A stretch of DNA of 64,000 bases from a virus. Its lineage: Duplodnaviria > Caudoviricetes. Positions 3,905 to 39,809 of this stretch are shown in pieces (the stretch's first letter is position 1; the number at the start of each line of letters is the position of its first letter). Location: positions 160,001-224,000 of the IMG/VR virus record IMGVR_UViG_3300014204_013734. One strand, written 5' to 3'. The notes under the pieces are model-generated. The model was not told where the DNA came from. It searched no databases and worked only from the letters and a program-made list of their open reading frames with translations. The position numbers and the translations under genes were made by a program.

Positions 3905-6622
3905 GTGTTGACAAAACAGGAATTGATGGGTTTCATTAGACAAGGGATGTTGGACAAAGAAATAGGATTAGCTTGTGGCGTTACGGACGTCACGGTAGGT
4001 AATTGGCGGGACTTTTATGGTTTGAAGACGTTGTCTGTTGATGATCGGCGCGTTTTGCAGGGTTTTCCTTCTTTTGAAGCTGTCACCAAGGATCAGATGC
4101 TTGCACACTTGGTTTCGGGCAAATCCTTGAAGCAGATTGCAGACCTTCACGGGGTGTCTGTTTTTCCCGTGAAGCAGAAGCTGAAGAAATTCGGGTTGGG
4201 TGTCAGGCAGAAATGGCATTATCAAGGGTGTGATGTACTTTCGGATTCTTTGCGTCGTTTGCTGGTTGGTGTTTTGTTGGGGGATGGTACTGTAGGTTAT
4301 GTTGAAGGAGGGGAAACTTCAAGATTCAAGGTAGGTCATAGTCACAAACAGTATACTTACCTCAAGTCTTTGCATGCCAAAATGGGGAAATGGGCACGAC
4401 CGATCAAAGGGTCTGTGTCTTTCAAGTATGGGAAGAAACGATTTAGTTATTGGTTCACGACCATTAATCACCAGGAATTCAGGAAGCTTCGCAAAGAATT
4501 TTACAGGGACGATTTATATGGGACCGTTCCGAACGACTGGTTGAAAGCACCCCCGTTGGAAGTATTTCGTACCTTGCACGATGAATCTTTAGCTTACTGG
4601 TATTTTGATGATGGGGCTTTGGGAACTTCGGACGAAAGCGTTTCTTTGGCGGTGTTCTTTCCGTTGCTTGACATGGATGCCGTTGTAGAAGCCTTGCGTG
4701 TCGGAACGGGTTTGCATTGGAGAAAAAAAGAATGTTCAGGTCATTTTTATAAGGTGTTTTTGGAAGCGGCAGACAAAGAAGCTTTCTTTTCTCGCATCGT
4801 ACAATATGCAACCCAGGATATGGCCTACAAATTCCCGGAAAAATGGTGGAAAGACATAGAAGGATTTTGTATTATTCCTGACGGAATTAGCAATCTTTCG
4901 GAAGAAATATTGTACCACTATCCTGTCACGGAATGGAAGAAGTTGGAAGCGGATGATCAGAAACGTTGGGTGAATGAAGTATTCACCATTTACAGGGCGA
5001 CGGGATTCCCTTTCTCTAAGGTGCTATCAAAAGAAGAAACCCTTGCTACCGTTTTAAGGCTTGCACGGCATAAGGAATTTGTGGATGACGGACATCCTTT
5101 TATTCGTTCCATCGTGGGTCTTTCTTTGTGTAATGGATATATGCCACACAGATTCCAAGTGGTAGTTGGGGGCAAGAGTGCATGGGACACTTTCCACGAT
5201 GATGTTGCTTTCAAGAAAGTGCTTTGGACGCAGTTCAGGATGGCAGGAAGCCGGTGGGTTGGGCCTAAGAATATAAGAGGGGCTTTGTCCGTGTACGGAG
5301 GAAATCGGACACCTTCTAATTTTAGGCCCTCCGCAGTCAAGGCATTGGTGGACCGTTTCTGTTTACCTAGCGGGGTGGTGTGGGATCCTTGTGCGGGTTT
5401 TGGGGGTCGTCTGTTGGGAGCTGTCTGTTCGGACATGAACGTAACTTATATCGGTACGGAACCTTCCCCTCAAACGGTGACTGGTCTTGAAAGGTTGTGG
5501 AAATCAGTTTCTTCTTCAATGGGGTGGCAAAAGGATAGGGTTCGTTTGATTCAAGGGGTAGCAGAAAAAGATTGTCCTGACCCTGATTCTGTGGACTTCG
5601 TTTTCACGTCCCCTCCTTACTTTGACAATGAACGTTATGTAGGAGGACGACAATCTTATTTGTACGACACCTACGTCTCTTGGGTTGAAAGCTTTTTGGG
5701 ACCTTTGGTAGGCAATGCCTATTCTTGTTTGCGGTCTGGGGGTTTTCTGGCAATCAATATTCAAGACATAAAGATGAACGGAAAAACGCTTCCTTTGGTA
5801 GAAGATTTGGATGGGGAAGTTAGGAAAAAGGGCTTCAAGAGGTTCATTCGTTGTTGGTACCCTCTCAGTTTTTTTGGGGGGCAACGCCCTGATGAACCGA
5901 TCCTTATTTATTGGAAACCCTTAGAAAGTATGGATTATGAAGAACCTTCATGGGATTTCGGGGTGAAAAACACCACGTCTGGAAGACATACGGTGTCCAT
6001 TGAAAACGCTTTTTTGCGAAAACGATCCGCCTGTAGCAGGTGCGGAATTCCTTTGGAAGGTCCTACGCGTCAGGTTCGGCATTGCCCTTCTTGTAAGAAA
6101 GAACTTAACGCGGAAAGGGCTCAAACCAAACGAAATTCCTTCAGGGAAGTTCACCCTATCAAGGGATGTCGCACTTTTACCTGCAAACAGTGTGGTTCTT
6201 CTTGGGAAACCTTTGAACTTGGGAATTTTTCTATTTGTCCTTCATGCCGGGAAAAGGAAGCTTTAGCTAAAAGGTCCAAAATCTGTGTCTACCGAAATTG
6301 CGGAAAATCTTTTGTAGACAATAGTTTAAAGAATTCCATGTCTTATTGTTGTTCAGAATGCCAGCGTCGGGAGAAATTGTTTCGATCAGGGAAGGTAACG
6401 GACGAATCCCATTTTCGGGTCAAGGGTAGTCCCAGGGTTCGTACTTGTATGGTTTGCCAAGGGGTTTTCATCCTTGAAAGCGGGGAGGGGAACAATAATC
6501 GGTGTCCAGTTTGTCGTGAAAGGGCTCGGGACAAGAAATGCCGGAAGTGTGGTGTTGGTTTCCGTGATGGTAGCCTGAAGAATACGGTAAAGTTCTGTCC
6601 TGATTGTCGGAAGGGTCCCTGA
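3905..6622 (+). CDS. HTH + LAGLIDADG endonuclease + amino-DNA methyltransferase + Cys-rich Zn-finger fusion
   Basis: LLVGVLLGDG and LAYWYFDDG (two-motif LAGLIDADG); WDPCAGFGGRLLGA (SAM binding) and FTSPPYF (catalytic); more than 8 CxxC pairs at the C-terminus. Confidence 0.8.
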   Translation: MLTKQELMGFIRQGMLDKEIGLACGVTDVTVGNWRDFYGLKTLSVDDRRVLQGFPSFEAVTKDQMLAHLVSGKSLKQIADLHGVSVFPVKQKLKKFGLGVRQKWHYQGCDVLSDSLRRLLVGVLLGDGTVGYVEGGETSRFKVGHSHKQYTYLKSLHAKMGKWARPIKGSVSFKYGKKRFSYWFTTINHQEFRKLRKEFYRDDLYGTVPNDWLKAPPLEVFRTLHDESLAYWYFDDGALGTSDESVSLAVFFPLLDMDAVVEALRVGTGLHWRKKECSGHFYKVFLEAADKEAFFSRIVQYATQDMAYKFPEKWWKDIEGFCIIPDGISNLSEEILYHYPVTEWKKLEADDQKRWVNEVFTIYRATGFPFSKVLSKEETLATVLRLARHKEFVDDGHPFIRSIVGLSLCNGYMPHRFQVVVGGKSAWDTFHDDVAFKKVLWTQFRMAGSRWVGPKNIRGALSVYGGNRTPSNFRPSAVKALVDRFCLPSGVVWDPCAGFGGRLLGAVCSDMNVTYIGTEPSPQTVTGLERLWKSVSSSMGWQKDRVRLIQGVAEKDCPDPDSVDFVFTSPPYFDNERYVGGRQSYLYDTYVSWVESFLGPLVGNAYSCLRSGGFLAINIQDIKMNGKTLPLVEDLDGEVRKKGFKRFIRCWYPLSFFGGQRPDEPILIYWKPLESMDYEEPSWDFGVKNTTSGRHTVSIENAFLRKRSACSRCGIPLEGPTRQVRHCPSCKKELNAERAQTKRNSFREVHPIKGCRTFTCKQCGSSWETFELGNFSICPSCREKEALAKRSKICVYRNCGKSFVDNSLKNSMSYCCSECQRREKLFRSGKVTDESHFRVKGSPRVRTCMVCQGVFILESGEGNNNRCPVCRERARDKKCRKCGVGFRDGSLKNTVKFCPDCRKGP

Positions 6623-32617: not shown

Positions 32618-33197
32618 AGCCCGTATCATATGTTTGGTGCCGTCCATCCGTATTCCGGATCTTGATTTGACTTTGGCTAAGGACCAGGAAGCTTACGTGG
32701 ACGAAAAGGCTGCCAAAGGTTCCCTTGATTTGGATGTAGCCCGCCGGGCCGGCGGAGTCCAATTGCATTGGGTAGAACGTAGCCGAATCGTTAAGTCCCC
32801 CGACCCTCCGGTGCCGCCTGTACGTGTGGATCCGCCAAAACGAGGATTCCAGTCGTTTCCAGCAGAACGGTTGGAATTGGATTTGGATGACTTGGCCAGT
32901 CGTGTTGCTGAACGGATGGTTTCCAAGACTAGGGATTCAGAAACGAACAGCAAGATAGACGCCCTCCTTGAACTGGTTGGAAATCTTCGTCAAGAAATTG
33001 CAGGGGCTTCTGTTGCATCGGGTCAGTCCCGTGGTAGGGTAACAGTTGAGGATGACACCCCTGTGTTCATCCCTGGCAAGTTGGTGAACGAAGATTTGGG
33101 GACCGTGGAAGTGAAGACAGACGATTCAGATTCCGGTGATGGTTTGGATAAGGCGGCGGAAGTCTTGAAAGCATTACGGAAACGCAAGAAGAAATGA
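32610..33197 (+). CDS. Hypothetical protein
   Basis: GAGGAGG RBS before GTG 32610; basic C-terminus; coupled to the actin-like gene. Confidence 0.65.
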   Translation: MVEARIICLVPSIRIPDLDLTLAKDQEAYVDEKAAKGSLDLDVARRAGGVQLHWVERSRIVKSPDPPVPPVRVDPPKRGFQSFPAERLELDLDDLASRVAERMVSKTRDSETNSKIDALLELVGNLRQEIAGASVASGQSRGRVTVEDDTPVFIPGKLVNEDLGTVEVKTDDSDSGDGLDKAAEVLKALRKRKKK

Positions 33198-33208
33198 GGA
33201 GAACCGCC

Positions 33209-34237
33209 ATGGCGGACAAGACAGAAAAATCAAATAATTCCAATAGGTTGCCGGGCAGTGGTTTAGATTGTGGCACTATGAATATTGTTTCAGCCAGACG
33301 AGGCCCTTCTGGTATCATTACGAAACGGATGCGGGACGTGTTCCTAGATCTTCCCTTAAGTGCGAAGAAGATGTTGAAGTTATCCAACGCCAGTTTCGTG
33401 GAACGGCCAGACGACGTCCTCATCCTGGGCGATGCGGCCCTGGAAATGGCCAACGTGTTTGGGAAGGATCCTCGCCGTCCATTGGCCCAGGGTATTATTT
33501 CTCCCAGTGAATCGGAAAGTTTGGAAGTTTTGGGGTTGCTCGTCAAGAGTGTTCTTGGTGACCCTATTGTTCCGGGGGAACATTGTTACTTTTCTGTTCC
33601 TGCTATGCCGGTTGACAGGACAGATAAGGATGTCATTTACCATCGTGGGGTGTTTGAACGCATTGTCAAGGAATGTGGGTTCACGCCACATTCCGGCAAC
33701 GAGGCGATGGCCATCATCTATTCGCAGACGGCGGAAGAAGGCTTTTCCGGGATTGCCCTTTCCTTCGGAAGCGGTATGACAAATGTCGCACTTTCGATAA
33801 ATACCGTAGAAGGGTTGACTTTTTCGGTCGCCCGGGGCGGGGATTGGATTGATGCCGGCGCGGCGCATGCCATTGGGCAGACGCCTGCCCGCATCTGTGC
33901 CCTGAAGGAACGCGGGTTTGACCTCATAAGCCCTGTCGGCAGGGAACAGGAAGCCTTGGCTTTCTATTACAAGGAAGCCATCAACTATGCTTTTGACCAG
34001 ATCGAAGCCCAGTTCAAGGCGGTCAAGGACAAGTTCTCCCTTGCGAAGCCTATCCCGATGATCGTGTCGGGCGGGACTTCCCTTGCCGGTGGCTTCATGG
34101 ATTTCTTCACGGGAGTTTTTGAAGCCCGTCGGAAGAAGTTCCCCATTTCCATTTCGGTCATCCGTCAGGCATCTGACCCCTTGAATGCCGTGGCTCATGG
34201 TTTGCTGGTGCAGGCGATGCAAGAGCACGAACAATAG
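33209..34237 (+). CDS. Actin-fold ATPase (MreB/ParM/FtsA-like)
   Basis: GLDCGTMNIV (phosphate 1), NEAMAII, LSFGSGMTNV (phosphate 2), GGDWID, IVSGGTSL (adenosine), DPLNAVAHG. Confidence 0.85.
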   Translation: MADKTEKSNNSNRLPGSGLDCGTMNIVSARRGPSGIITKRMRDVFLDLPLSAKKMLKLSNASFVERPDDVLILGDAALEMANVFGKDPRRPLAQGIISPSESESLEVLGLLVKSVLGDPIVPGEHCYFSVPAMPVDRTDKDVIYHRGVFERIVKECGFTPHSGNEAMAIIYSQTAEEGFSGIALSFGSGMTNVALSINTVEGLTFSVARGGDWIDAGAAHAIGQTPARICALKERGFDLISPVGREQEALAFYYKEAINYAFDQIEAQFKAVKDKFSLAKPIPMIVSGGTSLAGGFMDFFTGVFEARRKKFPISISVIRQASDPLNAVAHGLLVQAMQEHEQ

Positions 34238-34307
34238 TTTCAGTTCTTGGCGGAATCCGTGGTGGATTTTGTTAAGTTTGATAGACAGACAAAGGAAGGC
34301 AAGGATC

Positions 34308-34712
34308 ATGAAAACGTTTGACGAAATCTACAAAGACACGGATTCATTGGACGACAAGGCCCTCTTGGATTCCTTGCGGGAAGAATCCAGGTGCAAGCTG
34401 GCGTCGGAAAAGTTTCTCCACCAATTCGGTGATCTGTTTGCTGCTGTTGAACACAACAATGTTCGGGTGTCTGATGTCGTCACGTCTGTGACCATTTGGA
34501 CGGACTTGCGGAAAAACTATCCAGAATACGTGGATCCTGAAACGGAACTGTCCGTTCTGAAGGATGGCAGGATGGGAGGTTTGTGGGGCGCCAATGTGTG
34601 GGTTGACAAGACGGTGCCTCCCAACCATATCCGCGTCTATGGAGAAGATGACCCGGCGTTCGCATCCGAATGGCCCAAGTTCGCATCTGCAGCGGAAAAG
34701 TTGTGGACCTGA
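34308..34712 (+). CDS. Stand-alone paralog of one major capsid protein domain
   Basis: Aligns without gaps over about 65 aa to the capsid protein at 2833-3717 (see findings). Confidence 0.7.
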   Translation: MKTFDEIYKDTDSLDDKALLDSLREESRCKLASEKFLHQFGDLFAAVEHNNVRVSDVVTSVTIWTDLRKNYPEYVDPETELSVLKDGRMGGLWGANVWVDKTVPPNHIRVYGEDDPAFASEWPKFASAAEKLWT

Positions 34713-34761
34713 ACTTCTACGGCAAAAGCCATTTGACGACCGAACAAAGGAGTTTTTGAAT

Positions 34762-35655
34762 ATGACCGAAAAGAAGACATTTCAACCATTTCCTGTTCAG
34801 CGGGTCATCATCAAGGCTTTTCGTGGCATTCAATTGGATTCCGTTGCCAAGTTCAGCATCCTGTCGGATTGGAAAAAAGGGAAGAAGGAAACCGTTACTG
34901 AGACGTCCCTCCTTCATTACCTTCACGATGAAGGCATGTGCAACACTTGGAAAATTGAAGTTGGAAGACCCTTCCAACAACTCGTTCTTTGTGCTGGACG
35001 TCGGGCTGGCAAGAGCTTTGTGGGGCACCGTCTCGTGGCGGATGCTTTCAACGAATTACGGTCTACGGATGATTTCCGAGTCGGTTTGGGTCTTGGGGAA
35101 GAAGAAGACCTGAACATGGCGGTTGTCGGCGCATGCAAGGAAATGACAGATTATTCCATGAATGCTATTTGGGATAATTTGAAGGGGGATGATTCGTTAG
35201 CACGGGTTGTCGGACGGATTTCAGATCCTAAACGCCGTTGTCGCATTGTAGCCATGTCGGCTTCCGGCAAGGCGTTGCACGGCAGTAAGAATTATTTCAC
35301 CTTTCTGGATGGAACCATACACGGCCCGAACCCCGATAAGGTTTACAGGTTGGCTCTGATGTCCGGTAAGGGCTTTAAGGGGTCTGCGGAAAGTAAAGTT
35401 GTGTCTGTATTTTCTCCGCCGATCATGCAGAAAGGTGCTGATTTCGCTTACAGGTTTTGGTTGTCGGCCCACCAGGATGCCGGGAATACCCTTTGTTTTC
35501 GCATCCCTTCTTGGGTGATGAACCCGACGATTTCCCGGGATGTGTGGAAGCAGGAAGCAGATCGTATGGACGAAGCCGTATTCCGGGCGGAATACGGGGC
35601 TGAATTTGTTAGTGCTGATGGAAAGCCGTGGAAAAATACAAAGGACCTTTACTAA
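34762..35655 (+). CDS. Truncated terminase large subunit paralog (ATPase domain only, degenerate)
   Basis: PFPVQRVIIK (Q motif), LVLCAGRRAGKS (Walker A), FTFLDG (Walker B without Glu), RIPSWVMNP, FRAEYGAEF, then stop. Confidence 0.75.
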   Translation: MTEKKTFQPFPVQRVIIKAFRGIQLDSVAKFSILSDWKKGKKETVTETSLLHYLHDEGMCNTWKIEVGRPFQQLVLCAGRRAGKSFVGHRLVADAFNELRSTDDFRVGLGLGEEEDLNMAVVGACKEMTDYSMNAIWDNLKGDDSLARVVGRISDPKRRCRIVAMSASGKALHGSKNYFTFLDGTIHGPNPDKVYRLALMSGKGFKGSAESKVVSVFSPPIMQKGADFAYRFWLSAHQDAGNTLCFRIPSWVMNPTISRDVWKQEADRMDEAVFRAEYGAEFVSADGKPWKNTKDLY

Positions 35656-35674
35656 GCGTTGACGGGAGGATTCT

Positions 35675-37009
35675 ATGCTTCATCAATGGGCTGGATGGGA
35701 AGTAGATCTACTGTCGGCGACACGCCCTTGGCTTCCTGCATCCGATCTTATTAGTTTGTTCAAGGCGTGCGGATCCGTCAGATCCAAAGATTCTTTGAAC
35801 AACAAGGCAACTGCTCTTGGTATTGACATACGGGGGCACAATGCCGAAAAGGCACTGTCAGCGGTCATCAAGTCAAAAATCCCACAAAACCTGAAACAAT
35901 TGGCGGTTACGTTCCTTGGAGGGGTTCCTATCGATACGTCGGAAATCGGGGATCCTTCAAAGGTAGCTGACCGAGTGGAAATTGACAAACTTCGGGGTAG
36001 GGTCCGGTCCCTTGAAAAGGACTTGGAAGAAGGCACCTATTTCGGCAAAATCGTGAAGGATCTGTTTTCCAAACCGGTTTCGGTTCCGGATTGGGTTCTG
36101 GCAGCCCCCAAGAAGAAATCAGGGAAGGTAGCGACCCCCCAACTGCTCATCAGTGATTGGCATTATGGGGAAGTCGTGGACCCGAATGCCATTTGGGGAG
36201 TCAACGAATACAACCCAGAAATAGCTGTCCGGCGCCTGCACCGTGTAGCACAAGCTGCTACCTCCATGTTCAAGGAATACTTGTCGGGATGGCGGTATGA
36301 CGGCATCATAGTCCCCTTGGCAGGGGACATGATTTCCGGCAAGATTCATGCAGAGTTGGAACGTACAAACGCCGAACAGTTGACTGATTCCGTTTTGTCC
36401 TGGTCAGCCGAATTGGCGCGTATGCTTACTGTCCTGGCGGATGCCTTCGGCAAAGTTTACGTTCCAGCGGTAGTTGGAAATCATGGCAGGGAAGATCTTA
36501 AACCTTCCATGAAGCAGGCCGTGGCCCGGAACTACGATTATCTGTTGTACCGACTTGTGAAACGGGAAGTGCATAATGATCCCCGTATTACGGTGGATGT
36601 GTCCCTTTCTACTTCACGTAGGTACACGGTTTACGGGCAGGGATACCACTTGATGCACGGTGACGATTTCAAGGGTGGTAGCGGTATTGCCGGTTCCTGG
36701 TCCCCTTTGAAACTCGGAGAACACCGGACGACGCAACAGTTCATGGATTTGGGACATGATTTTGAGTCTGGGTGTTTGGTTCTTGGGCACTTCCATCGTC
36801 GGATGACCGATATTGGTCTGATTGTCAACGGGTCAGGGATCGGTTACAATGAATTTGCATTCCGGAAACATTACAAATTCGAAAGACCCCAGCAGGCGGC
36901 GTGGATCACAACCCCGGAAAATGGCCAGACTTTGGAATTCCCTGTATTCTGTGATTCCCACGAGGAATACGAAGCCCAGATAGTTGCCGCCAGACTCTTG
37001 AACAAGTGA
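35675..37009 (+). CDS. Calcineurin-like metallophosphoesterase with N-terminal HTH/coiled region
   Basis: SDWHYG, AGDMISG, VGNHG, MHGD, LGHFH. Confidence 0.88.
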   Translation: MLHQWAGWEVDLLSATRPWLPASDLISLFKACGSVRSKDSLNNKATALGIDIRGHNAEKALSAVIKSKIPQNLKQLAVTFLGGVPIDTSEIGDPSKVADRVEIDKLRGRVRSLEKDLEEGTYFGKIVKDLFSKPVSVPDWVLAAPKKKSGKVATPQLLISDWHYGEVVDPNAIWGVNEYNPEIAVRRLHRVAQAATSMFKEYLSGWRYDGIIVPLAGDMISGKIHAELERTNAEQLTDSVLSWSAELARMLTVLADAFGKVYVPAVVGNHGREDLKPSMKQAVARNYDYLLYRLVKREVHNDPRITVDVSLSTSRRYTVYGQGYHLMHGDDFKGGSGIAGSWSPLKLGEHRTTQQFMDLGHDFESGCLVLGHFHRRMTDIGLIVNGSGIGYNEFAFRKHYKFERPQQAAWITTPENGQTLEFPVFCDSHEEYEAQIVAARLLNK

Positions 37010-37038
37010 AGGAGGTAGATTACAAATAATTTCCTTAT

Positions 37039-37255
37039 CGTTCCCCCACTTATGTGGGGTGATCTTGGAACCCCTTTGGTGAGTATTCCCCACATCAGTG
37101 GGGATGAACCGCGGCGTGGATTACGTTCCCTACACACGTGGGGATGGCCCGTGCTCGGCGTTTGTTCGTTCCTAATTCCCCACGTTAGTGGGGGTGACCC
37201 GTGGGACATCACCTTAGATTTTGATGTTGTTCCCCACATTAGTGGGCGTTGACTG
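37039..37255 (+). CRISPR. Degenerate type I-E-like CRISPR mini-array: 5 repeats, 4 short spacers (about 15, 11, 21, 25 nt), no cas genes in window
   Basis: Repeats at about 37039-37067, 37083-37111 (GTATTCCCCACATCAGTGGGGATGAACCG), 37123-37151, 37173-37201, 37227-37255. All keep a TCCC(C/T)AC-N4-GTGGG(G) hairpin; 8-nt 3' handles ATGAACCG, ATGGCCCG, GTGACCCG. Confidence 0.8.
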
Positions 37256-37271
37256 ACCAGAGGGGTTCCAA

Positions 37272-38471
37272 TTGTACTTTCAGTTAACCGAACAATTGAA
37301 ACGACGGTTCATTTTAGAACTCCGTCGTTTCTGGTCTACACATCCCCACTACTCCGACATTGTTGACAAAATTCAAGGGAAGTTTTCCTTCAAGGAACGT
37401 CCTTCCTACGGCATTATTGTCAAGACTTCCGGAGGTAACCGGGTTGACCTTTCCGCCGACAACTATATGGCTATGACGATCAGTTACGTCCACTTGGCGC
37501 GTGCAAGAAACAATCCTGGGGTTGCCATAGAATGGGTTCGTGAAGATTCTGTTGCCATTCAAAATAATGGAGGTATTTTTCCGTCTCTGCCTGGTGTTTA
37601 CTGGATTGAATTGACGGAGGATACTGAATTTTACGTTGACCCTCTCCTGAACATTGTCGGGGAAATCCCAACCCCTATTGACCTTACGACGTTTCAGTTG
37701 CAGCACGCCCCTGTTGCTGGGACTGTCCGTTTGTATGAGATGCCTGCCCGTTATATGTTGGTAGAGGGACAGAACTACACACTTTCCCTTGGACCTGATG
37801 GGAAACCGAATGGTGAAATCATTCTGACGACTCCGTTGACCAGAGACCGCTTTCTGGTAGCGGATTATCGTTTTCCAGCCCCCTCCCGTGGACCTTTCGT
37901 TTTGAACCCCGGTTATGCTGATAACAAAGCAATCCCGGGTGTGATTTTGGCATTTGGTAGGAGGAATCAGAAGGGTGATAAACTTGTTGTCATCGTTGAC
38001 GAAATTCGTCGTCCAGTTGCGTTGGAGTATGGTGGAAAATGGGACGTCACCTTAGATTTTGATGTCATTGCCAGAGATGTTCATGCACAGCAGGAAATTG
38101 CAGATGCAACCGTCGTCTGGATTTGGGCTGTCCTTCGGTCTTGGATGTCCCAGGAAGGTTTGGAAATTACCGACCTGTCCATGGGGGGTGAATCGGAGGA
38201 AACCTACGATGAAGCTGGTGACGACTATTTCTACAACTCTTCGTTTTCCTTGACCGTTCAGACTGATTGGCGCCTCCAGGTTCCTTTGAGTGCCTTTATC
38301 CGGCAAGTTACTCCTGAAACCAGCATTTATGCCCGGGGATTGGCTTCTATCCCGGATGCCCAGTTGGCTTTAACCCAACAGGGGATTAGGGCGGCTACCG
38401 ACTTGGGTTTGGAACTGGTTTCCGACCCCTTCTTTTCCGGGCGTATTGCCACATACGAACAAGTCCGGTGA
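37272..38471 (+). CDS. Putative tail terminator/neck structural protein
   Basis: TTG start after GAGGGG. C-terminal LDFDVIARD..QQEIAD..SFSLTVQTDW fits a tail-terminator fold; lies upstream of the sheath. Confidence 0.5.
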   Translation: MYFQLTEQLKRRFILELRRFWSTHPHYSDIVDKIQGKFSFKERPSYGIIVKTSGGNRVDLSADNYMAMTISYVHLARARNNPGVAIEWVREDSVAIQNNGGIFPSLPGVYWIELTEDTEFYVDPLLNIVGEIPTPIDLTTFQLQHAPVAGTVRLYEMPARYMLVEGQNYTLSLGPDGKPNGEIILTTPLTRDRFLVADYRFPAPSRGPFVLNPGYADNKAIPGVILAFGRRNQKGDKLVVIVDEIRRPVALEYGGKWDVTLDFDVIARDVHAQQEIADATVVWIWAVLRSWMSQEGLEITDLSMGGESEETYDEAGDDYFYNSSFSLTVQTDWRLQVPLSAFIRQVTPETSIYARGLASIPDAQLALTQQGIRAATDLGLELVSDPFFSGRIATYEQVR

Positions 38472-38993: not shown

Positions 38994-39809
38994 GTGCGGA
39001 CCTATTTGATTTACAAGGCAACTTCTCCTTCCGGGAAGATTTACGTAGGGCTTACCAGCCAAAAAATGAAGGTGAGAAAACACCAACATTATTCGTCAGC
39101 TAAGCGGTTTCAAAGTTCTGGGGCTTTCCAGAAGGCCCTTCTCAAGTACAGGACTGCTATGACGTGGGACATCTTGGAATCTGGACTTCCTGACTTTGAA
39201 GCTGCCGCTGCCAGGGAACGGTATTACATAGCCTTGTTTGGAGCAAATATCTCAGGTAAAGGCTACAACCACACGGAAGGAGGGGGTCAAGGAAGACCCT
39301 TGAATTCCAAGAATTCCAAATCTAATATTGATCCGGTCTTGCGTTCTGATGGGATTGTTTTTCCTTCTGCACGGGCTGCTGCTTTGGCTATGGGAGCAAA
39401 GTGTGATTGGGCTGTTGGAAAGGCCATCAAGAATAAAGGCACCTGTGGTGGATTTTCTTTTCGGCGGATATCCGTTGAAGAATATGAATCTTTGAAAGAA
39501 ACATGTACCCCTAAGAACGTTCCCATTGTTCATTGGACTTATGCTAGGACTTTTTCTGATGCCGTCAGACGGAAGATATCGGAAACAAAAAAAGGGAAAC
39601 CTTTAAAGCACACCAGCAAACCTGTTAGGCGTTCGGATGGGGTTTTGTTTCCGTCCATAAAAGAAGCAGCGATTTCGGTTGGTACGACATCAGACGCTTT
39701 ACGCTATGCTGCACAAAGAAACCAACTTTGTCATGGGTTTTTATTTGAGATTTTTCCGAAAGGAATTTCGGTGGTCGCCCTATTGAAACCCCTTGGTGGA
39801 CAGGATTGA
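38994..39809 (+). CDS. GIY-YIG homing endonuclease with NUMOD-type DNA-binding repeats
   Basis: LIYKATSPSGKIYVGLT, ERYYIALF, GYNHTEGG; two RSDG..FPS..AA repeats; RRKISETKKG. Confidence 0.88.
   Translation: MRTYLIYKATSPSGKIYVGLTSQKMKVRKHQHYSSAKRFQSSGAFQKALLKYRTAMTWDILESGLPDFEAAAARERYYIALFGANISGKGYNHTEGGGQGRPLNSKNSKSNIDPVLRSDGIVFPSARAAALAMGAKCDWAVGKAIKNKGTCGGFSFRRISVEEYESLKETCTPKNVPIVHWTYARTFSDAVRRKISETKKGKPLKHTSKPVRRSDGVLFPSIKEAAISVGTTSDALRYAAQRNQLCHGFLFEIFPKGISVVALLKPLGGQD

Follow-up and report, generated by a model that had tools for sequence, protein, structure and literature searches.

A worn, Cas-less mini-CRISPR array in a huge phage carries near-copies of the genes that flank it

The locus analysed here is a small CRISPR array at positions 37038-37255 of a 64,000-nucleotide window, namely bases 160001-224000 of the 381,280-bp IMG/VR virus record IMGVR_UViG_3300014204_013734 (Caudoviricetes). 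The same genome is present in other collections as contigs of 444,386 and 444,425 bp; the genome-wide scans reported below cover the 381-kb record, with ~63 kb of the 444-kb genome lying outside it. Nearly all genes are on the + strand, and the neighbours of the array are phage genes. Upstream lies a gene (35675-37009, + strand) for a 444-amino-acid metallophosphoesterase-type exonuclease (phrog_284, E = 2e-38; homologues named phosphodiesterase), and downstream a gene with a TTG start (37272-38471, + strand) for a 399-amino-acid protein without a family name, which huge phages conserve (745 homologues at E <= 1e-60). Between them are five repeats of the type I-E family and four spacers of 15, 11, 21 and 25 nt; the 381-kb record yielded no gene for Cas6e, Cas7e, Cas1, Cse1 or Cas3-HD. 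We read the locus as a mini-CRISPR array without cas genes that descends from type I-E, situated in a variable island between conserved virion genes of a ~444-kb phage.

The array lies entirely on the + strand, and only 28 AT-rich bases, in which no promoter-like site was found, separate the stop codon at 37009 from its first repeat. Repeat 1 (37038-37067; handle TGATCTTG) is a degenerate copy whose stem holds one additional C, and it retains its hairpin (-13.2 kcal/mol). It is followed by spacer 1 (37068-37082, 15 nt) and by repeat 2 (37083-37111), the best copy, which fits fully the description of a type I-E repeat: a length of ~29 nt, a CCCC(A/G)C...G(T/C)GGGG hairpin and an ATGAACCG-type tail. 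Spacer 2 (37112-37122) comprises only 11 nt and leads to repeat 3 (37123-37151), which has a G-U wobble in its stem and the handle ATGGCCCG. Spacer 3 (37152-37172, 21 nt), repeat 4 (37173-37201; handle GTGACCCG), spacer 4 (37202-37226, 25 nt, or 27 nt with the next two bases) and a degenerate terminal repeat 5 (37227-37255), in which one stem pair is broken, complete the array. A hairpin of 6-7 bp with a 4-nt loop is predicted in all five repeats. Pairwise likeness is 93-95% in the stems, 35% in the loops, 30% in the first three bases and 46% in the 8-nt tails; the tail pattern xTGxxCCG is kept in the three internal repeats, and the tails of repeats 1 and 5 are degenerate.

The affinities of these repeats are best seen in repeat 2, the 26-nt core of which, taken as a pattern with a free 4-nt loop, is shared by 77 viral contigs and by CRISPR arrays from more than 120 genomes spread over many phyla. 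The exact core, searched for a clue to the host, gave no match; ~1,950 spacers from the arrays sharing that pattern, compared with the phage, yielded nothing beyond 15-17-mers. The window's array matched no Rfam family, even at E <= 1. Compared with its cellular relatives the array is markedly worn. A single loop sequence characterizes 70 of 90 cellular arrays of the same repeat family, whereas the five repeats here have five different loops and a mean identity of 66%, short of the near-identity seen in a type I-E array. Likewise, among 1,951 intervals between repeats in this family's arrays, 99.6% measure 59-64 nt, whereas the periods here are 45, 40, 50 and 54 nt, in place of the usual ~61-nt period with spacers of ~32-33 nt. 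The shortened spacers and diverged repeats indicate that the array is old and no longer acquires spacers. Shortening of spacers in steps of 6 nt, one Cas7 unit each, was considered and dropped, the deficits from 61 nt being 7, 11, 21 and 15-16 nt. Three solitary repeats of the I-E family lie on the + strand in the tRNA region of the same genome, outside the window (genome coordinates C1:48959, 53397 and 56250), the last ~36 bp upstream of a tRNA-like sequence; their stems are nearly intact, and their loops and tails all differ.

The central finding concerns the spacers, which resemble DNA of the two flanking genes. Spacer 4 matches the 399-amino-acid virion-module gene at 24 of 25 positions (38040-38064, same strand), with its single mismatch at position 7 and an AAA flank, exactly as an earlier sequence-only reading of this DNA had reported. 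At position 7 the array has ATC (Ile) and the gene GTC (Val); when the comparison is extended by two bases, to 38066, the match becomes 25/27, the added difference (GTT/GTC) is synonymous, and WDITLDFDV in the array corresponds to WDVTLDFDV in the gene. No other match of this kind exists in the 381-kb record, and only ~3e-10 would be expected by chance within +-1.2 kb. Spacer 3, a match absent from the earlier reading, is 19/21 identical to the minus strand of 36358-36378 in the exonuclease gene, where the minus-strand flank is AAC. Its two mismatches, at positions 3 and 15 of the spacer, are synonymous (CGT/CGA, GAA/GAG); the match is unique in the genome, with ~2e-6 expected locally. Spacer 2 is the weakest case. 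Taken with its edges (37111-37125) it matches 36896-36910 of the same exonuclease gene (+ strand) at 13/15, both differences being at third codon positions of a segment that reads AAWIT on either side, and an AGG flanks the target (36897-36907) of the 11-nt spacer proper. This much of what had been claimed for it stands; standing alone, the spacer is at chance level, with a 10/11 match that has six equals elsewhere in the genome and expectations within +-1.2 kb of 0.04 (10/11) and 0.004 (13/15). Spacer 1 behaves differently, in a way that the earlier reading likewise does not mention: with its edges (37065-37084) it is complementary at 18 of 20 positions to 37252-37271 (8e-6 expected within +-1.2 kb). 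The latter segment, the 3' arm of a 20-bp inverted repeat, includes the GAGGGG ribosome-binding site and stops immediately short of the TTG start at 37272. This long-range helix is present in both the minimum-free-energy and the centroid folds, and the region has z = -6.3. Chance as the source of the matches of spacers 1, 3 and 4 was rejected by these expected counts.

Several regularities unite the matches. All targets lie within 850 nt of the array, the resident copies are flanked by A[A/G]N, and the homology of spacers 2-4 runs from their very first position, only the part distal to the protospacer-adjacent motif (PAM) being absent. Of the six differences from coding targets, Val/Ile is the only one that is not synonymous; together with a second array described below, 7 of 9 are synonymous against ~25% expected for random changes (P ~1e-3 by our own calculation). 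Seed mismatches to self (the seed being positions 1-8) are present at position 3 of spacer 3 and at position 7 of spacer 4, the latter being the one that the sequence-only reading had stressed. Moreover, the spacers are 90-96% identical to their targets, far above the identity of the repeats to one another (66% on average, 35% in the loops), a contrast which suggests that the guide sequences are constrained or young. Judged by the sequences, the spacers would either derive from coding alleles of the neighbouring genes, or the genes alone would have changed after copying; even the nearest relatives lie too far off to act as an outgroup that would show which side changed.

The duplicated segments are genuine. 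The locus is the same in three further assemblies from other samples, namely L104 (JGI 3300037067), L227 (JGI 3300035208) and L228 (ENA ERZ27247350, 444,386 bp), which are 99.9-100% identical to it over the parts they cover, and this agreement rules out the assembly chimera that might otherwise have produced such a pattern.

Comparable patterns were encountered at other loci. The same genome has a second Cas-less array, of an unrelated repeat type, outside the window (C1:350930-351200); one of its spacers (351093-351119) agrees in frame, at 24 of 27 positions, with the next small gene 440 nt away (351533-351559), and the differences are two synonymous changes and one Ser/Thr exchange. A screen of 75 spacers from small arrays in the 77 viral contigs sharing the repeat yielded two further cases. 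In the first, an unrelated viral contig of low guanine-cytosine content (L017; IMGVR_UViG_3300002220_006424), two perfect I-E repeats (2025-2115) enclose a spacer of the canonical 32 nt, which matches the adjacent gene at 26/32 (~1705-1736, 353 nt away, AAA flank). All six differences are synonymous, with seed mismatches at positions 4 and 7, and an exact search of viral contigs with this spacer returned only the contig itself. The second case (L071; IMGVR_UViG_3300022562_001969, reverse strand, 856-935 and 3917-4002) is a two-repeat I-E mini-array with a 25-nt spacer. A 61-bp tandem repeat lies 3 kb away, and the spacer matches each of its two copies at 24/25, with the mismatch at position 4. 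Further solitary repeats are present on this 86-kb contig.

We tentatively favour, with limited confidence, the view that the locus is a guide array aimed at sibling-phage alleles of its own neighbour genes. The array would probably be transcribed with the upstream gene, because it is on the same strand as the operon and directly follows the upstream stop codon, and the five conserved hairpins would be the sites at which host Cas6e cuts the transcript. Of the spacers, 3 and 4 (and perhaps 2) would then represent PAM-proximal fragments of flanking-gene alleles. The silent or conservative differences, including those at seed positions, would spare the carrier, and host Cascade-Cas3 would be directed at related phages with matching alleles. 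In the type I-E system of E. coli, spacers of more than 20 nt still give interference and one of 14 nt gives priming (Kuznedelov 2016, PMC5159557); spacers 3 and 4, at 21 and 25 nt, would thus be long enough for interference. The outcome might be heterotypic superinfection exclusion, as proposed for the Saccharolobus portogloboviruses SPV1 and SPV2. With the targets adjoining the array, guide and protecting immune allele would be inherited together, as they would have to be, because recombination among co-infecting phages could otherwise generate suicidal genomes. Repair of a cut sibling from carrier DNA could copy the array as well, resulting in a homing-like spread, and the array would probably also soak up Cas proteins. 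Processing, Cascade loading, cutting and spread are all steps that we infer.

A number of observations weigh against sibling targeting. One is that a genome with the spacer alleles was not found in the collections searched. Perfect matches in related phages, the support that the sequence-only reading had looked for, did not emerge from exact searches: spacer 4 had no match in viral or metagenome contigs, and the reverse complement of spacer 3 none in viral contigs. The 90% protein clusters of both flanking genes contain members from the same strain only, with no protein of another strain at >=90%, and the four assemblies of the locus all represent one clonal strain and include no sibling. The closest relatives of the 399-amino-acid gene are 75-78% identical and lack the I-E array; the closest relative of the exonuclease is 63% identical and lies in another genomic context. 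At the protospacer of spacer 4 the relatives of the 399-amino-acid gene read TGGGATCTCACCCTGGATTTTGATGTT, with four mismatches to the spacer, and two of them (L090, L091) have a terminator hairpin at the position of the array. Absence of the alleles from collections does not show their absence in nature. The earlier proposal that the guides were taken from sibling alleles is borne out to the extent that they are copies of flanking-gene alleles with codon-structured differences; the sibling itself was not found. A pattern of this kind could equally have come about had the resident genes been the source of the spacers and only the genes changed afterwards. There are mechanistic objections as well: Cas1-Cas2 would not make spacers of such lengths, and the poor pairwise likeness of the 5' handles (46%) makes Cascade assembly doubtful. 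The three solitary I-E repeats, if they are RNA anti-CRISPRs, would disable the very machinery that the guides need. Finally, in a 75% relative (L229; ENA ERZ27247363) a solitary 32-nt repeat (1708-1739) lies directly upstream of the homologue of the 399-amino-acid gene, that is, in the same slot. Its match to Rfam CRISPR-DR9 (E = 7e-4) stays under the gathering score; it overlaps a called open reading frame (ORF) of 173 amino acids at that frame's 3' end, and is presumably type I-C-like, as judged by its GTGGATTGAAAC tail; twelve other relatives gave no Rfam CRISPR-DR match. The occupation of one slot by CRISPR-repeat RNA of different subtypes in two related phages suggests a counter-defence component.

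This last point leads directly to the view that the array is an RNA decoy resembling the RNA anti-CRISPRs (Racrs), which we regard as a serious rival, if on balance unlikely. The five hairpins would bind host Cas6e and build dead, short-spacer Cascade complexes, the spacers being non-guiding, either remnants of an earlier guide array or filler copied from nearby DNA at repeat duplication. Conservation restricted to the hairpin stems, the abnormal shortness of all spacers, the three solitary repeats of the same family in the tRNA region and the CRISPR-DR9-like repeat at exactly the same slot in the 75% relative are in line with it, as are the occurrence of matches in both orientations and the fact that the match of spacer 1 crosses the repeat borders; furthermore, type I-E Racrs have been validated experimentally (PMC10651486). 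However, filler should not be 90-96% identical to its targets while the neutral parts of the repeats are near-random, nor should its homology start exactly at spacer position 1 beside A[A/G]N flanks, and the canonical 32-nt spacer of L017 would likewise go unexplained. Validated Racrs also work by lacking a 5' handle, whereas the units here have one from the preceding repeat. A decoy role may in any case coexist with sibling targeting. Regulation of the phage's own flanking genes is a rather improbable account of the locus: spacer 1 would pair with the ribosome-binding site of the 399-amino-acid gene, either in cis, through the 20-bp helix that the Cas6e cut would open, or in trans as an antisense RNA, and short-spacer Cascade would bind the resident genes without cutting, in the manner of CreA or of CRISPR interference of transcription (CRISPRi). 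The 18/20 helix does cover GAGGGG up to the TTG start, with the folding support given above; the seed of spacer 1 is perfect to its site, and spacer 2 has 10 perfect PAM-proximal bases beside AGG. Spacers of 24 bp repress without interference in the type I-B system of Haloarcula hispanica (PMC10989794), and the viral mini-array L071, with its 25-nt spacer and 24/25 self match, is a further point in favour. Set against these points are the seed mismatches of spacers 3 and 4 to their resident copies, the location of the targets of spacers 2-4 deep in coding regions rather than at promoters, the TTG flank of the spacer 1 site, which is the end of its own repeat, and the lack of relatives in which conservation of the helix could be tested. 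For spacers 3 and 4, the CreA-like alternative raised in the sequence-only reading is accordingly a poor fit, given mismatches at seed positions 3 and 7 and intragenic targets; for spacers 1 and 2 it is conceivable. Where spacer 1 pairs with the ribosome-binding site, a regulatory feature of its own may be involved.

Two further explanations dispense with any present role of the guides. The locus might be a self-targeting scar, in which host Cas1-Cas2 had put the phage's own DNA into phage-borne repeats, the phage had escaped as its genes changed silently and the spacers became truncated, and nothing functional was left. The silent, seed-positioned differences, truncated spacers and degenerate repeats would all be accommodated. 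We nevertheless consider this very unlikely: a lytic phage with a self-targeting spacer would be lost unless an escape mutation arose simultaneously in the same genome, the confinement of all targets to within 850 nt is left unexplained, the intact stems amid randomised loops argue for continued selection, and this one genome shows the pattern twice, in arrays whose repeat types differ. That the array is instead a small protein-coding gene, with the repeats encoding peptide repeats IPH[IV]SG, is hardly credible. A 66-amino-acid ORF (37052-37252) was called there in the JGI record of L104, the frame is open across the array, and spacer 4 reads WDITLDFDV in it. The ATG, however, lies in the loop of repeat 1 and lacks a ribosome-binding site, the unit is, at the nucleotide level, the type I-E repeat of hundreds of arrays, the frame of spacer 2 differs from that of its source gene, and some of the periods (45, 40, 50 and 54 nt) are not divisible by three.

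Among known systems, the closest parallel to the array under the sibling-targeting reading is provided by SPV1 and SPV2, which carry Cas-less mini-arrays with spacers matching the sibling virus at 100%; their targets lie near the array and the self loci are mutated, a proximity that was left unexplained (Medvedeva et al. 2019, PMC6858448). Like those arrays, the present one is intergenic and without cas genes, has repeats of cellular type and nearby targets, and faces point-mutated copies in the carrier (here 24/25, 19/21 and 10/11). In contrast, the portoglobovirus spacers are of normal length and have a known, co-occurring sibling, whereas those described here are 11-25 nt long and no sibling was found; the five differing repeats, the apparent lack of a recognisable leader and a bacterial host, assigned through the type I-E family, also set the locus apart. 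It shares with RacrIF1 and RacrIE1/2 (Camara-Wilpert et al. 2023, PMC10651486) the phage-borne mimicry of host repeats without cas genes and the conserved hairpin. Those Racrs are single repeats without a 5' handle or target-matching sequence, whereas here there are five tandem repeats and four spacer-like segments, three of which are non-random copies of neighbouring DNA, and units 2-5 are preceded by the tail of the prior repeat. Being neither solitary nor made of units without 5' handles, the locus falls outside the strict definition of a Racr. Degenerate repeats, short spacers and partial self matches are likewise features of CreA and of truncated-spacer CRISPRi (Haloarcula hispanica I-B, PMC10989794). 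However, CreA lies beside cas genes and has an intact seed and PAM at a promoter, whereas the long matches here are intragenic with seed mismatches; an intact seed is found in spacer 1, at a ribosome-binding site with a TTG flank.

Neighbour-targeting mini-arrays have thus been reported once previously, for two archaeal viruses, and the same signature is seen here, in worn form, in a huge phage of bacteria. Its presence at two arrays of different repeat types in one jumbo phage and in an unrelated viral contig suggests a general rule, be it linkage of guide and immune allele or spread of the cassette by RNA-guided homing. With spacers this short and repeats so poor in handles, one may also ask where the boundary between guide arrays and RNA anti-CRISPRs should be drawn.

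In T-even phages, free-standing GIY-YIG and HNH endonuclease genes bring about intronless homing. The array resembles such elements in being an intergenic cassette with a recognition site in the adjacent gene that is silently changed in the carrier; unlike them, it encodes no nuclease, so that any cutting would be RNA-guided and performed by the host. A stronger form of the sibling-targeting reading would make the array the RNA-guided counterpart of an intronless homing endonuclease, with host Cascade-Cas3 cutting siblings in both flanking genes and repair copying the array together with the immune alleles. We think this step, also taken in the sequence-only reading, conjectural and rather doubtful as matters stand. 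The relatives without the array, at 75-78%, are too distant to show conversion tracts, and a narrow literature search found no paper proposing RNA-guided homing by virus-borne arrays. If true, it would explain why virus-borne spacers adjoin their targets, a question left open by Medvedeva et al. 2019.

A conventional homing element is present in the vicinity. The 399-amino-acid gene is followed by a zinc-ribbon gene, then by a GIY-YIG homing-endonuclease gene (38994-39809), 0.9 kb downstream, and then by the gene for a 1,765-amino-acid protein. Within the same structural block the GIY-YIG gene seems to be mobile and free-standing; it is found in relative L091 and is absent from L092, L093, L095 and L099, a distribution suggestive of co-infection by sibling phages and of recombination between them in this block. 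The variable island itself extends from the Volactin-like gene to the 399-amino-acid gene (34238-37271). It measures 3 kb here and ~0.8-1.3 kb, with other content, in L093 and L095. Its content in the present genome consists of a 175-amino-acid ORF, a 363-amino-acid protein weakly like the terminase large subunit, the exonuclease, which is lineage-specific cargo of the island, and the array. The gene bordering the island on the upstream side (33194-34237), within the virion-gene block, encodes a 347-amino-acid protein that matches the Pfam family Volactin (PF25216, archaeal actin-like; E = 4.5e-70) and is kept in relatives at 62-82%.

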